Source: a virus
Lineage: Duplodnaviria; Heunggongvirae; Uroviricota; Caudoviricetes
Strand: one strand, 5' to 3'
DNA length: 64,000 nucleotides
Virus record (IMG/VR): IMGVR_UViG_2718217859_000010
Numbering within the stretch: the stretch's first letter is position 1; the number at the start of each line of letters is the position of its first letter. Shown here in pieces: positions 54,001 to 57,000 of this stretch. Made by a program: the position numbers.

Positions 54001-57000
54001 GAGTGGCTTTCACGGAATGCCTCCATCCACACCGTTGCAGCTCGACGGAATAAGCTCCTAGACTCCAGTTCTTCAGCCTGGCGGGTCAGGCACAAAATCA
54101 CCCGGGGGTCGTTAGTGCCGACATAGAAATTGCGCACAGGTCTGGTTTCACGAACAGATTGTGGTTCCGGCTCCTGCGCTCTCTCAGTCAGGCGCGGGAA
54201 ATGTCTGCGTGTATCTCCTTCACAACGGTGAGCCACACGCCCACTCTGACGTAACTTGCTTGCTGACTGCAGAACGCGCTGCCGTGAGTAACCAGCAAAA
54301 GCATCCGCAATGTCTCCGGAAGTACACCCCGGATGGGCTTCAATGAATTTCTGAACTTCATTCAAAAGACTCATAATCACCCCCTGAATCCTGCCGGGAT
54401 CTGGCTGTAGTCCACGTTGTCGTAACTGGCTTTGAAGTACGGGTCCTCGCGTCTGGCTGCAGATACTGCAGGAACTTCCCAGGATTCTTCGAAATGACGA
54501 TCCGGACCAAAGAACGTGACAGCCTGTTTCACAAATTGTGTGCCGCTGTTACCCATCGCAGATACCCAGCCCGCGTAGCGTTTCACACCTTCCAGCATGG
54601 TTTCGGGGTTTACCCCCTCATTCAAACGGGCTTTCCAGGCTTTGAAGGCTGCAGATTTTAAATTGCCACCAGCACGTTTGGGATAGGCCAGCCATGCCTG
54701 CTCAAACTCCGGAGAGTATTCCGGTCGGTTTGAACGAACTCGCACAGACTCATCAGCAGATGCACCAACAGCTATTGGTTCATTGACTGGTTCTTTGACT
54801 GGTTCAAAAGAGTGACTGGTTCTGGGTGAATCTCCTGCACTACCCCCTGGTGCAACTCCTGCACTACCTGGTGAATTTGCTGCACCAGATAGTGAATTAT
54901 TTGCACTACCCCCTAGTGAATCTCCTGCACCATCAAGATGAAGGAGATAGATATTACTTGAGTTACCTTTTTCACCTTTCCGGGTGACTTTTTTTACCAG
55001 CCCAGACTCACAAAGGGCCGCAATATGATTCATCACAGAACGTTTGCTAATCTCGCACTGGTCAGCAATATGCTGGTAGCTGGGCCAGCACTCCCCCTGA
55101 TCGCTGGCATTATCAGCCAGCTTGATCAGAACCAGTTTTCGCAATGGATTACCCACTCGAATTTTCATCGCTTTAACCATCAGCTCCATACTCATGCTGC
55201 ACCTCCGAGATGCTTCATGTTTTTTCCGGAGCGAAAGGCTATAAGCGGCATACTGACGCGGTAATTACGGCCCAGCGGTTCACAAATCACCTTCTGACAT
55301 TCACGGTCAACCAGGCTAACACGTAGAACATGCCCTGCTGGCGTGGTGTACCACTGACCGGGGAGAGGACAACGGAAAGTCTGATTGGTAAATCGTTTGA
55401 AAATATTCCGGATCATTTACGCCCCCTTACCTCTGAAGAGTTCAGCGACGAATGAATAAGACGGGCAAGAAATGCCGCATCGTTAATTCGGTCATACAGA
55501 CTTACAGCCAGCGGTGATTCAGCTTTTTCCAGCATGGGATAAAGCTGCTGCAACCAGACCTGATGAATTGATGAAATGTAGGAATAGAGTACGCTGGCGT
55601 TATGTGCAACGTCGCTCGGTACAGCGGGCTTTGAAAGCTGTTTCTCCATCTGGTTAAAGGCATTGATGTATGCCTCTTTGAACTGGGCAGCACGTTTACC
55701 CGTGAAACCCATAGCAAGAAACGCAAAACCGTCGCGGGTTATTTGATAGCAAGGTAGTTTGCGGCCTGTGCAATCGGTGTAATCACTCACCGAAAAATTG
55801 CGGGCAGTGAATGATGCGGAGCATTCAAGCGTGCGGATCTTTTTCAGTACATCGTCATGACGTTTGGAGAAGAAGTTGGCAACAGCCAGGGATGAAGTAA
55901 CAGCCTGACCATCAACGATGGCAATTTCAGGTTGAGTGAGGGTTGGGATCGTAGCCATGATGGCAGCCTCTTTGGTGATTTTTAATAACTCACCACCAAG
56001 GCTTTCCACGACCTTATTGGTGGTGAGACGTACAGGGGTGGAAATACCGGTCACCAAAGAACCCGGCCCAACCGAAGTTGGCCCTGCACGCCCCACCATA
56101 ATTTGGGCGTAATGCTGCTCATGACACAAAAAAACCGCAAGAGCGCGGTTGTGCGCTTTGGTGAATTCCGGGTTTCCACGCCCGGCACCCGCTTTATAAG
56201 GTGCCTGAACAGTGTAACGTCCCGGAATGGCAGAATCAATGTGCTGGTGGTCCTTCACACTCAACAAAATCACGCCTGAATTTCCACAAAGGGCTAAAGC
56301 ACTCATGCGGGTAGTCTTTGCGAAGATAGATAACGCGCTGTGTTTCTGGCTCCCAACGAATAACATGGACATAAAGCCCTCTTCCGTCACGAAACCAGCG
56401 GTTAAGTTCCTGCACAACTCGCCCCCCACAGTCAGGTAAAGTTCTCTGTGGTTACTTACAGCCAGGTGATTTGATAATCTGCATTCATGCCGTAACAACA
56501 GGTGTTCAGCGACACTGACCACCAGCTGTTGCGACAAACGGTTATTTGCCGTTAAACTGTTCATGCGTTAGTTTCTCCACAACCAGAAGCAATCGACGCC
56601 ATGACGCCCGGAGCTGCACACTCGCGGGCGTTACTCTTTTCCGGCGCACAAAAAACACGAAATAACAGTGTTAAATGCTCCTGCCACTTCGCCATTACTT
56701 GGTAGCTGTTCTCTTCGATTTGCTCACGCTCAGCTTGGTCAATAACTCCATCAGCAGTTGCCTTGCGTAAGTACTGAGAATGCTTACCAATCCATTCTAT
56801 TGACTCCATCAGCCGCTGATTAATGTCACCATTGTCAATGTCATCAATGACCACCAGCGGCACAAACACCCCATTACTACGACGGGCTATTGCATCTGTT
56901 ACATGCCTGGTACCACTGGCATCCTGTAAAACCATGGCCCACTCAAGTGGAAAAATTTGATCCCCACCGCTACGCAGTCTGTTATGCAATTGATCTTTTG

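Follow-up and report, generated by a model that had tools for sequence, protein, structure and literature searches.

Putative dyad iterons and an invariant direct-repeat block mark a probable replication origin inside the initiator gene of a caudoviral prophage

The window analyzed here, i.e. the whole stretch of 64 kb, belongs to a prophage of the Caudoviricetes. On its minus strand, an open reading frame at 54377..55195 encodes a protein of 272 amino acids that was matched by Pfam HTH_36 (PF13730) at residues 17-67 with 44.1 bits (cut-off 25, E = 1.8e-11) and is thus a member of this family; HTH_36 is also the precomputed domain of its homologues, which number about 5,300. The same product was matched by PHROG 270, 'replication initiation protein', with an E value of 1.3e-87. 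The gene is situated in the early-right operon, 3' of cro, a cII-like gene, and an Ash/Rha gene. Genes about 98% identical to it are present in phages SfV, mEp460, and cdtI and in Stx2c and Stx2a phages. Homology and gene position are the grounds on which the product is named a putative replication initiator. Neither a P-like loader gene nor a following helicase gene was found in this prophage by ORF calls and a Pfam scan.

The architecture predicted by AlphaFold2 comprises an N-terminal winged-helix DNA-binding domain (residues 1-88; minus strand, 54932..55195), a disordered interdomain linker (residues 89-156; minus strand, 54728..54931; pLDDT < 50 for residues 91-156), and a small helical C-terminal domain (residues 157-272; minus strand, 54380..54727). 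Within the first of these, the predicted recognition helix occupies residues 51-64 (minus strand, 55004-55045) and the predicted wing residues 67-85 (within 54932..55195). Mean pLDDT per 10-residue block was 65-90 over residues 1-90, with its minimum over the wing turn. A Foldseek search of the PDB yielded generic winged-helix proteins only (E >= 4e-3), among them the N-domain of DnaD and a complex of a plasmid Rep with DNA. A PDB sequence search with the 272-residue protein detected no relative and an NCBIfam scan no match. Pfam matches at E <= 0.01 were limited to HTH_36, DnaD_N, B-block_TFIIIC, and HTH_20; Phage_rep_O (PF04492), the lambda O family, was not matched at this threshold. 'O-like' and similar PHROG names among the matches are annotations of remote clusters. 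Classification as a DnaD-like replisome organizer (DnaD_N, PF21984; SPP1 G38P type) was rejected: DnaD_N reached 24.3 bits with a cut-off of 27, the Foldseek match to the DnaD N-domain was weak (E ~2e-2), and no C-domain of the DnaD/G38P type was matched in Pfam. An iteron-plasmid Rep (Rep_3) was discarded as well, given that one winged-helix domain is predicted, Rep_3 was not matched, and the repeat units described below are dyads rather than asymmetric direct repeats. In PHROG, the C-terminal domain was aligned with the C-terminal portions of 'DnaD-like helicase loader', 'primosomal protein', and replication-protein families; in Pfam, the C-terminal 124 residues gave nothing meaningful up to E <= 10. 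Helicase recruitment is its presumed role.

The original prediction placed, within the replication initiator gene, three copies of TGACTGGTTC spaced by 12 to 17 bp and, after them, about five imperfect tandem repeats coding for a Gly/Ser/Ala-rich linker, and likened this to the location of the lambda origin within gene O. This description was borne out. The 10-mer TGACTGGTTC (coding strand GAACCAGTCA) is present in three copies in the 64-kb window, all on the plus strand (54784-54793, 54796-54805, and 54813-54822; spacing 12 and 17 bp). Chance would account for 0.06 copies, and three or more were obtained in 0 of 100 shuffles. Copies 3 and 2 form part of an invariant block of 28 nt on the minus strand (54796..54823) with the structure AGAACCAGTCAC-TCTTTT-GAACCAGTCA; AGAACCAGTCACTCTTTTGAACCAGTCA is a stretch of this block, which is termed the GAACC block below. 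Conservation is lower at the end of the block (minus strand, 54772..54793) that contains the third full GAACCAGTCA copy (54784-54793) and, at a spacing of 12 bp, a fourth, partial copy, GAACCAATAG (54772-54781). On the coding strand, copy 1 of GAACCAGTCA encodes R-T-S-H and copy 2 encodes E-P-V, i.e. two reading frames are used.

Tandem Repeats Finder reported a period of 24 bp and 4.6 copies at 54826-54930. By eye and by script, this tract resolved into five units with start-to-start distances of 24, 21, 21, and 24 bp, which encode residues 89-125 of the initiator (GAGDSLGGSANNSLSGAANSPGSAGVAPGGSAGDSP). The spacing corresponds to about two helical turns, with no start-to-start value in the array outside 21-24 bp. 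Every unit holds a dyad-symmetric core of 15 bp, GTGMA-N5-TKCAC (5+5 dyad, 0-1 mismatch), and this pattern is confined to the five sites within the window. Offsets were counted from the AGAACC anchor. The putative iteron 1 core (54916..54930, coding strand GTGCAGGAGATTCAC) is the most distant from the GAACC block, deviates by one mismatch from a perfect 5+5 dyad, and has an offset of -107 that is also seen in relatives. It is followed by the putative cores of iteron 2 (54892..54906, GTGCAAATAATTCAC, offset -83), iteron 3 (54871..54885, GTGCAGCAAATTCAC, offset -62), and iteron 4 (54850..54864, GTGCAGGAGTTGCAC, offset -41), the last a perfect 5+5 dyad. The putative iteron 5 core (54826..54840, again GTGCAGGAGATTCAC) is separated from the GAACC block by 'CC' alone, and its offset of -17 is kept in all clades examined. 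An Rfam search of 54000-55600 (E <= 1) revealed no known RNA element but a lone chance miRNA match far below threshold.

Comparison of the layout covered 111 distinct regions of viral contigs (61 arrays once redundancy was removed) and ~76 GTDB genome loci. The relatives examined shared the order winged-helix domain, 3-9 dyad cores, 'CC', and AGAACCAGTCAC block. Their cores were located at -17, -41, -62/63, -83/86, and -107 from the anchor, and, one 42-bp gap (2 x 21) aside, the spacing was 21-24 bp. The repeats were also looked for in related functional phages and are conserved in SfV, mEp460, cdtI, the Stx2c and Stx2a phages, and ST64B. As had been anticipated, their number differs between isolates: close relatives carry 1, 2, 5, 6, 7, 8, or 9 tandem units, so that some homologues possess no more than one or two units, and 2 to 4 GAACC repeat copies, of which the third GAACC, at +12, is usual and has a variable tail. 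Conservation within the arrays is confined to the half-sites and to positions -2 and +16 on their flanks, and both the 5 bp in the centre and the spacers are variable; because units were chosen partly by half-site similarity, some of the half-site conservation is circular. Dyad symmetry was found in at least 14 half-site classes, and the register to the anchor is fixed across hosts of 39-62% GC. The peptide encoded by the units is unrelated between clades, indicating that DNA rather than protein is kept. Linker composition differs wholly from clade to clade (G/S/A-rich, P/M/K/S-rich, or I/G/D-rich), and the peptide sequence is dictated by the putative iterons and the GAACC block. Even in the distant initiators of mEp554, Psychrobacter Y8A, and LESphi3 (36-56% N-domain identity), dyad iterons precede direct repeats of GAACC type that recur every 10-12 bp; the layout is kept, but the repeat words differ.

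The half-site class varies by clade and tracks the predicted recognition helix (residues 51-64). Helices xKRSVMNH and ERSVQNH go with half-sites GTGCA..TGCAC, RSTVKxH with GGGCA..TGCCC, and SK[ST]AVRxH with TGCCR..GGCA. Arg at helix position 56 is accompanied by GTGAC..GTCAC in two backgrounds, ISKRSVMRH (Erwinia/Izhakiella) and CDKRTAMRH (Vibrio phage D67). A partial Mantel test of site versus helix, given the rest of the domain, resulted in r = 0.30 (p = 2e-4), and that of site versus the rest of the domain, given the helix, in r = 0.28 (p = 2e-4). The rest of the domain being equally significant, the test does not discriminate and was abandoned as a means of isolating helix/half-site covariation; in statistical terms, shared ancestry and the helix/half-site association cannot be told apart. 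The N-terminal 45 residues of the initiator and H57 and I58 of the recognition helix are invariant across the family. The classes would predict binding specificities; an N56R exchange, for example, should shift the specificity from GTGCA to GTGAC. The tandem units are likely to be the initiator-binding iterons because of their dyad cores, their fixed distances to the anchor, and half-sites that vary with the predicted recognition helix. They appear to be better candidates than the TGACTGGTTC copies, to which the original prediction had assigned this part, and not merely repeats that code for a linker.

The GAACC block behaves differently from the tandem units. Across 11 phage lineages with a GC content of 41-60%, it shows few or no differences, and identical copies are carried by phages and prophages from Escherichia, Salmonella, Klebsiella, Vibrio, Pseudomonas, Stenotrophomonas, Haemophilus, Shewanella, and others. 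Exact matches to the 28 nt were retrieved from >120 viral contigs and 85 genome stretches of many gammaproteobacterial genera (at least 25), nearly all in the same initiator gene family and at the same position; the block itself served as the search pattern, so these loci are uninformative on the share of family members without it, and the sample unbiased in this respect is the protein-based phage sample. Mean codon identity was 0.37 in 31 invariant N-domain columns versus 0.94 within the block, the latter value being reached in 0 of 100,000 random draws, and nine block codon columns show a single codon across all 11 lineages. The frozen synonymous sites and the reading in two frames imply DNA-level selection on the block. 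Together, these data point to the GAACC block as a DNA-level element common to all iteron classes. The TGACTGGTTC copies do not change between clades, irrespective of the type of iteron, and, judged from sequence, cannot be iterons that determine specificity; they would constitute a separate conserved element beside the iterons. To our knowledge, and as compared by eye, none of the DnaA boxes, IHF sites, GATC/SeqA sites, or Chi fits TGACTGGTTC. By analogy, an opening or helicase-loading site is suggested as the role of the block.

The N-domain and the repeats form one inherited module, while C-domains and helicase partners vary. The blastn module boundary falls at gene nt 407-425, immediately 3' of the block, and in the recombinants P0064 and P0069 an N-module of Min27 type or Klebsiella type with its iterons is joined at the block to a C-module of the window type. 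Joint inheritance of N-domain and repeats is the arrangement expected of an origin plus its specificity domain. In lambda-type hybrid-phage genetics, the N-domain and the origin are likewise inherited together, a feature shared with the system in the window.

Several other explanations were considered. If the three TGACTGGTTC copies were the initiator-binding iterons and the 21-24-bp repeats merely a flexible Gly/Ser/Ala linker changing by slippage, it would be understandable that the 10-mers are exact, clustered, highly non-random, and under DNA-level constraint, and a conserved surface containing the invariant N-terminal 45 residues, H57, and I58 could read a conserved site. However, the 10-mer is unchanged in clades with recognition helices that differ at most positions. 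The tandem units, moreover, are dyadic and phased and have clade-specific half-sites everywhere, their encoded peptide is not conserved, and protein-level selection on the linker alone would not preserve a palindrome, so we regard this explanation as decidedly unlikely. A complete lack of cis function, with both repeat types being low-complexity coding of a disordered linker, would agree with the disorder predicted for the encoded segment (pLDDT < 50) and with a freely varying copy number. It is opposed by the frozen synonymous sites, the use of the 10-mer in two frames, the dyads in at least 14 half-site classes, and the fixed anchor register in hosts of 39-62% GC, and on the sequence evidence it is very unlikely, indeed scarcely credible.

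A purely recombinational role of the 28-nt GAACCAGTCA block is also conceivable: it may be a homology patch for exchange between N- and C-modules, without a part of its own in initiation. The module boundary directly past the block, the junctions of P0064 and P0069 at it, and its presence ahead of very different C-domains and helicase genes are all in accordance with this notion. It leaves unexplained, however, why the block is identical where flanking synonymous sites are saturated, why an internal direct repeat lies at a fixed 2 bp from the last iteron, and why distant relatives possess GAACC-type repeats with other words. Recombination can merely exploit such a patch, and we consider it unlikely that the block has this function alone; a homology patch and an initiation role are compatible and not mutually exclusive. 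The dyad array, in turn, could be a regulatory operator (for autorepression, a transcriptional roadblock, or initiator titration/handcuffing), with the true origin elsewhere in the prophage. Winged-helix dimers on dyad sites are typical of operators, and inverted repeats serve autorepression in iteron plasmids. Yet the array is located inside the coding region, ~265-370 nt past the start codon, no sigma-70-like promoter was predicted in 54300-55500 (TTGACT within the repeats does not make one), and the 15-mer pattern has no further copy in 64 kb. The layout instead fits the origins that experiments have defined in lambda/Stx phages and SPP1, rendering an operator highly improbable. A terminator scan of the same interval gave one antisense terminator-like hairpin, which is at chance level.

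The interval 54772-54930, inside the linker-coding middle of the initiator's own gene, is thus probably the replication origin of the prophage. Dimers of the N-terminal winged-helix domain would bind the five 15-bp dyad iterons GTGMA-N5-TKCAC. Being 21 or 24 bp apart, these would lie on one face of the helix and could give rise to a nucleoprotein complex like the lambda O-some. At the GAACCAGTCA direct repeats, 2 bp past the last iteron, this complex might open the duplex and/or a helicase might be delivered, and the exchangeable C-terminal domain would recruit the helicase or its loader. In this prophage, host DnaB/DnaC would be recruited because a helicase or loader gene is absent downstream. 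The GAACC block is mildly AT-rich (40% GC versus 50% for the gene) and a local stability minimum, but the least stable DNA in the window according to the duplex-stability profile is the opposite flank of the array (54930-54980). Among 124 relatives, the least stable 30-nt segment was in the block in ~32% and upstream of the array in ~45%. As a guide to the unwinding side, such profiles are ambiguous between the two flanks.

In lambda and Stx phages, the origin is found in the middle of gene O and consists of iterons and an adjoining AT-rich tract, and extra iterons lengthen O (PMC7466680). The locus in the window resembles ori-lambda and the origins of 933W and P27 (6 iterons) in its position between the parts coding for a DNA-binding N-domain and a helicase-recruiting C-domain, in the succession of several iterons and a distinct flanking element downstream, and in an iteron number that differs between phages and alters protein length. 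Unlike in lambda, the initiator matches HTH_36 and not Phage_rep_O, a P-like loader gene is missing from the prophage, the 15-bp cores (5-N5-5) have no sequence similarity to lambda iterons, and the flank, instead of being a generic AT-rich tract, consists of a direct repeat of specific sequence, without variation across a whole bacterial class. In Bacillus phage SPP1, oriL lies within gene 38 and contains iterons and a DNA-unwinding element; G38P binds its boxes and lacks AAA+ (PMC5737612). An origin in the initiator's own gene, repeated boxes, and an adjacent element would be common to both systems, and the weak DnaD_N-like signal and the DnaD N-domain among the fold matches of the window initiator recall G38P. 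There is, however, no detectable sequence relationship to G38P and no match to its Pfam family in scans of the whole protein and of its C-terminal part, the repeats differ, and SPP1, a phage of Gram-positive hosts, encodes its own helicase and loader, unlike the prophage in the window. As in iteron plasmids (RK2 TrfA, F RepE, pPS10 RepA; repeated 13-mers), the array of putative initiator sites adjoins short direct repeats. Plasmid iterons are direct repeats for monomers of a two-winged-helix Rep, whereas the dyads in the window suit dimers with a single winged helix; furthermore, the candidate origin is inside a coding sequence and the GAACC block lacks the AT-richness of the 13-mers.

The role proposed for the GAACCAGTCA block is modeled on the unwinding-element direct repeats of iteron plasmids, one strand of which is bound sequence-specifically by Rep (PMC4081077). 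Our literature search found no description of an origin for this initiator family; origin, iteron, and repeats are absent from the text of the 'Eru' paper about the replication regions carried by non-lambdoid Stx phages, and PMC6118388 has IncX1 plasmid iterons as its subject. Matches in a plasmid database were mostly non-mobilizable 'plasmids' of 33-45 kb that resemble circular phage genomes and thus provide no independent support for a minimal replicon. We tentatively raise the possibility, itself rather doubtful, that a large gammaproteobacterial phage replicon family has in the GAACCAGTCA block a universal core element of its origins that has not been described before. It would be sequence-specific and independent of iteron specificity, would be recognized in double- or single-stranded form by the part of the initiator that is invariant or by a host factor conserved in Gammaproteobacteria, and would dictate R-T-S-H-S-F-E-P-V in two frames. 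It would be the place of duplex opening and of the loading of very different helicase systems, i.e. host DnaB, a phage DnaB-like helicase, a primase-helicase, or a P-like loader.

The replicon drives phages with Shiga toxin 2c and 2a, the cytolethal distending toxin of cdtI, and the O-antigen conversion of SfV, as well as Salmonella phage ST64B. Toxin output rises with phage genome amplification. The putative origin and its specificity determinants would therefore offer a handle on replication, exclusion of co-resident prophages, and replicon typing, and with the 28-nt block the replicon family can be tagged simply at the DNA level in at least 25 genera. The locus is also a case of overlapping codes, in which a linker peptide is set by putative DNA-binding sites and an apparent origin element is conserved more than the surrounding protein. 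The iteron number, ranging from 1 to 9, could adjust the efficiency of replication or be a sign of defective prophages.

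The plus strand carries the 10-mer TGACTGGTTC at 54784, 54796, and 54813, and the 64 kb contain no further copy (expected count 0.06; three or more copies in none of 100 shuffles). Directly to the right of these copies lay a tandem array (54826-54930), for which Tandem Repeats Finder returned a period of 24 bp and 4.6 copies and in which a separate repeat search found the same units. All repeats fall within the initiator gene, a minus-strand open reading frame of 272 aa (54377..55195). The original observation of three TGACTGGTTC copies plus tandem repeats within this gene was thereby confirmed in every descriptive point by window search and Tandem Repeats Finder. 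Along the minus strand, the winged-helix domain is followed by five units, the dinucleotide CC, the GAACC block, and the C-terminal domain. The 15-bp cores of the units are, in coding order, GTGCAGGAGATTCAC, GTGCAAATAATTCAC, GTGCAGCAAATTCAC, GTGCAGGAGTTGCAC, and again GTGCAGGAGATTCAC. Every core is a 5 + 5 inverted repeat with at most one mismatch, core starts are 24, 21, 21, and 24 bp apart, and the degenerate pattern GTGMA-N5-TKCAC occurred five times in the window, exactly at the five cores. After CC, the coding strand reads AGAACCAGTCAC, TCTTTT, GAACCAGTCA (the 10-mer on this strand), AA, GAACCAGTCA, AT, and GAACCA; the first three elements constitute the 28-nt block, anchored at its AGAACC. 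The spacers between cores (e.g. 54841-54849 and 54907-54915) are G/C runs ending in TA, reading GGGGGTA on the coding strand here and CCCCCTA in other clades. Because the T at position -2 was 97% conserved within arrays, the actual site may be about 19 bp (TA-core-TA) instead of 15 bp. The AT-rich stretch immediately upstream of the array holds, antisense to the initiator gene, a terminator-like hairpin, TCACCTTTCCGGGTGA plus a T-run (54972-54987, plus strand); such sites occur at chance level regionally.

Initiator residues 17-67 matched Pfam HTH_36 (44.1 bits versus a cut-off of 25), a DnaD_N signal stayed below the Pfam threshold, and the whole protein matched phrog_270, "replication initiation protein" (PHROGs, E = 1.3e-87). 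There was no match to Pfam Phage_rep_O, the lambda O family, and neither a Pfam family for the C-domain nor a solved structure related by sequence was found. An AlphaFold2 model built from 26 close homologues was of moderate overall confidence (mean pLDDT 59.6, pTM 0.34). The N-domain was well predicted as a classical winged helix (helices at aa 17-28, 40-47, and 51-64; beta-hairpin wing at aa 67-85), followed by a disordered stretch (aa 91-156) and three short helices (aa 162-214); fold matches were generic winged helices. From the disorder of aa 91-156, the units and the GAACC block are predicted to encode a disordered linker.

The neighborhood is a lambdoid early-right operon. It comprises a cI-like repressor gene (57466-58119, plus strand), a cro-like gene (57173-57370, minus strand), a cII-like gene (56561-57145, minus strand), a 383-aa ORF for an Ash/Rha regulator (55413-56564, minus strand; Ash domain aa 117-213, Rha domain aa 223-308), a 74-aa ORF, the initiator gene, a 164-aa PerC-family gene (53886-54380, minus strand; Pfam PerC, PHROG "transcriptional activator"), a gene for a 119-aa protein with a LexA DNA-binding domain (53560-53919, minus strand), and RusA (53168-53563). 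The start of the PerC-like gene overlaps the initiator stop by 4 nt. Downstream of the initiator, no helicase or loader gene was found, whereas most relatives have a gene of DnaB-like, primase-helicase, or P-like type there. As the PHROG profile match to the Ash/Rha ORF begins only at residue 61, about 60 first residues of this mechanically called ORF may be untranslated; its cdtI homologue is annotated as antirepressor. The 119-aa protein consists of the DNA-binding domain without a peptidase domain and could be a LexA competitor or mimic; its cdtI counterpart is annotated "RecA-mediated autopeptidase."

The initiator gene was about 98% identical in the isolated or induced phages SfV, mEp460, cdtI, 2H10, Ayreon, Stx2a_WGPS2, and many Stx2c phages, and 88.6% identical in Salmonella ST64B. 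In a sensitive blastn search, the matches of Vibrio and Stenotrophomonas phages were confined to gene nt 367-416, which are the GAACCAGTCA copies (90-97% identity). Ten such phages were retrieved from E. coli, Salmonella, Klebsiella, Vibrio, Pseudomonas, and Stenotrophomonas (gene GC 41-60%). The order of parts was identical in all ten, AGAACCAGTCAC-N6-GAACCAGTCA was essentially unchanged, and the gap from the last core to AGAACC was constantly 2 bp. The upstream units varied in sequence, yet they were always dyads (e.g. GTGACaaaatGTCAC, GGGCAggagcTGCCC, TGCCAtctgaTGGCA, and TGCCGccaaaaaGCA), and the encoded linkers were unrelated: G/S/A-rich in the window, P/M/K/S-rich in Klebsiella, Salmonella S135, and Stenotrophomonas, and I/G/D-rich in Vibrio. 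Copy number differed among relatives, as had been predicted. In homologues with 68-99% identity, linkers of 7, 15, 37, 44, 51/52, 59, or 65/67 residues corresponded to 1, 2, 5, 6, 7, 8, or 9 units. The commonest form had five units and 272 aa (one 90% cluster held 2,852 sequences), cdtI had eight, and the GAACCAGTCA copies varied from two to four.

A block pattern scan of IMG/VR yielded at least 120 matches, and a protein-profile scan added 80 loci; among the at least 204 block occurrences listed, all those inspected belonged to the initiator family and lay at the same position. One scan of species-representative genomes gave 85 exact matches, in Pseudomonas, Xenorhabdus, Photorhabdus, Providencia, Proteus, Erwinia, Pantoea, Enterobacter, Shewanella, Marinomonas, Microbulbifer, Photobacterium, and Haemophilus as well as a Cardiobacteriaceae MAG, again in initiator-family context with one clear exception, a contig binned to a Pirellulaceae MAG (L266). 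Having been found with the block as query, both samples inform on context and diversity, not prevalence. In both, cores lay at -17, -41, -62/63, -83/86, and -107 from the anchor, spaced 21, 22, 23, or 24 bp apart, the single exception being a 42-bp gap (2 x 21). On L266, an exact GAACCAGTCAC-N6-GAACCAGTCA pair (~1923) lies in an apparently non-coding context, with CAGAACCAGTCACG repeated at 17-bp distance; the genome collection showed no other occurrence outside the family, and this one may reflect chance, contamination, or unrelated use of the same word. Among the IMG/VR occurrences, one family member (contig L147, ~10683) is frameshifted: it lacks 1 nt in the spacer preceding the block, so that the N-domain and the rest of the gene are in different frames, and is a pseudogene or else reflects a sequencing error. 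Searching phage genomes by tblastn with the 89-aa N-domain gave an unbiased sample (289 records). Every lineage whose N-domain identity was 64% or more had the block, and more distant initiators kept the layout with other words: mEp554 has four copies of GTGTCagagaGACAC, then CC-TAATCAGTCA...TAACCAGTAA; Psychrobacter Y8A has GTGAC..GTCAC units, then CC and 2.5 copies of GAACCTATCAAT; LESphi3 has about seven GCAggaaaTGCAC units followed by CC and by four GAACC 10-12 bp apart; Va_PF430-3 has GGTCAAATTCCGACC units, then an AT-rich tract; and SfII has a differing array of 15-bp period without GAACC repeats.

The first GAACCAGTCA-type copy is read AGA-ACC-AGT-CAC (R-T-S-H) and copies 2 and 3 are read GAA-CCA-GTC (E-P-V); thus, one DNA word is used in two frames. 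Codons were compared across 11 lineages from the phage sample. For 31 invariant degenerate amino acid columns of the N-domain, mean pairwise codon identity was 0.37, and synonymous sites are therefore saturated. Ten well conserved block columns gave 0.94, a value that 100,000 random draws of ten columns from the N-domain never reached, and nine of the ten used a single codon across lineages (e.g. AGA for Arg, AGT and TCT for Ser). This codon pattern indicates purifying selection on the block at the DNA (or RNA) level. An Rfam scan found no RNA element at the block, and no promoter was predicted around it. Sequence comparison also showed the block to be a module-exchange point. Blastn split the gene at nt 407-425, the same block was followed by differing C-domains, and the downstream partners were variously a DnaB-like helicase, a primase-helicase, a P-like loader, a "replisome organizer," or none; two recombinant proteins (P0064 and P0069) join other N-modules at the block to a window-type C-module.

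Both repeat types were candidates for the iterons, and four points favor the 21-24-bp units over the GAACCAGTCA copies. Within arrays, the half-sites and flanking positions -2 and +16 were most conserved, and the central 5 bp and spacers were variable; the picking of units by half-site similarity, in which -2 and +16 played no part, makes the conservation of half-sites circular in part. Dyad symmetry recurred in at least 14 half-site classes, the peptide encoded by the units was not conserved, and half-site class tracked the N-terminal half of the predicted recognition helix. Helices KRSVMNH, RRSVMNH, and ERSVQNH went with GTGCA/GTGAA..TKCAC; RSTVKxH with GGGCA or GGTCA dyads; SK[ST]AVRxH, SHSSVRNH, and SKTSVRNH with TGCCR or TAGCA dyads; and SRKTAIGH and TRTTAINH with GTGTA..TACAC. 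The most telling case is Arg at helix position 56, which pairs with GTGAC..GTCAC both in ISKRSVMRH (Erwinia and Izhakiella prophages) and in the otherwise unlike CDKRTAMRH of Vibrio phage D67; ISKRSVMNH pairs with GTGCA..TGCAC. Partial Mantel tests aimed at separating this association from ancestry gave equally strong correlations for site versus helix given the rest of the domain (r = 0.30, p = 2e-4) and for site versus rest given helix (r = 0.28, p = 2e-4), so the association agrees with direct readout, but the statistics do not prove it. The block is not the specificity site, because the same block accompanies every iteron class. The proposed likeness to lambda stands, with the two repeat types exchanging roles and the dyad units being the likely iterons.

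The repeat feature is real and almost certainly functional at the DNA level. A mechanism can be drawn by analogy with two experimentally characterized systems of identical layout. The lambda/Stx-phage origin lies in the middle of O, with iterons and an AT-rich tract beside them; of these iterons, the two closest to the tract suffice for unwinding, and additional iterons lengthen O by residues (PMC7466680). In SPP1 oriL, within gene 38, G38P-bound boxes adjoin the unwinding element (PMC5737612). By analogy, the five phased dyads would be bound by N-domain dimers that deform the DNA, the block next to them would be the opening site and/or helicase delivery site, and the C-domain would recruit the helicase system, in the window prophage that of the host. 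The putative role of the block is modeled on plasmid Rep proteins, which bind one strand of repeated 13-mers of the unwinding element (PMC4081077). The block has 40% GC and is a local stability minimum; in the window, the least stable DNA lies at 54930-54980, on the opposite side of the array. Of 124 dereplicated relatives, about a third had the minimum within the block and just under half had it upstream of the array. On these data, a specific role of the block in opening or helicase delivery is only a tentative suggestion, and the feature as a whole is probably an origin with the dyad units as iterons.

No description of this family's origin was found in the open-access literature searched. 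The window repeats are proposed to work like those of ori-lambda, although the initiator is outside the lambda O family; from iteron plasmids the system differs in its dyad units, single winged helix, and intragenic origin. An intragenic iteron origin is already familiar; the flanking two-frame, synonymously frozen 28-nt block common to phages across Gammaproteobacteria is unusual.

In some E. coli genomes, the N-terminal 70-80% of the initiator is fused to a RusA domain (P0047-P0050 and P0076; HTH_36 + RusA, 99% identity); these proteins are presumably deletion derivatives in decaying prophages. The initiator also occurs on several 33-45-kb "non-mobilizable plasmids" in PLSDB (NZ_CP148393.1, CP077666.1, NZ_CP019281.1, NZ_CP118695.1, and others) from E. 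coli, Salmonella, Klebsiella, Shewanella, and Microbulbifer; these records resemble circular phage genomes entered as plasmids.
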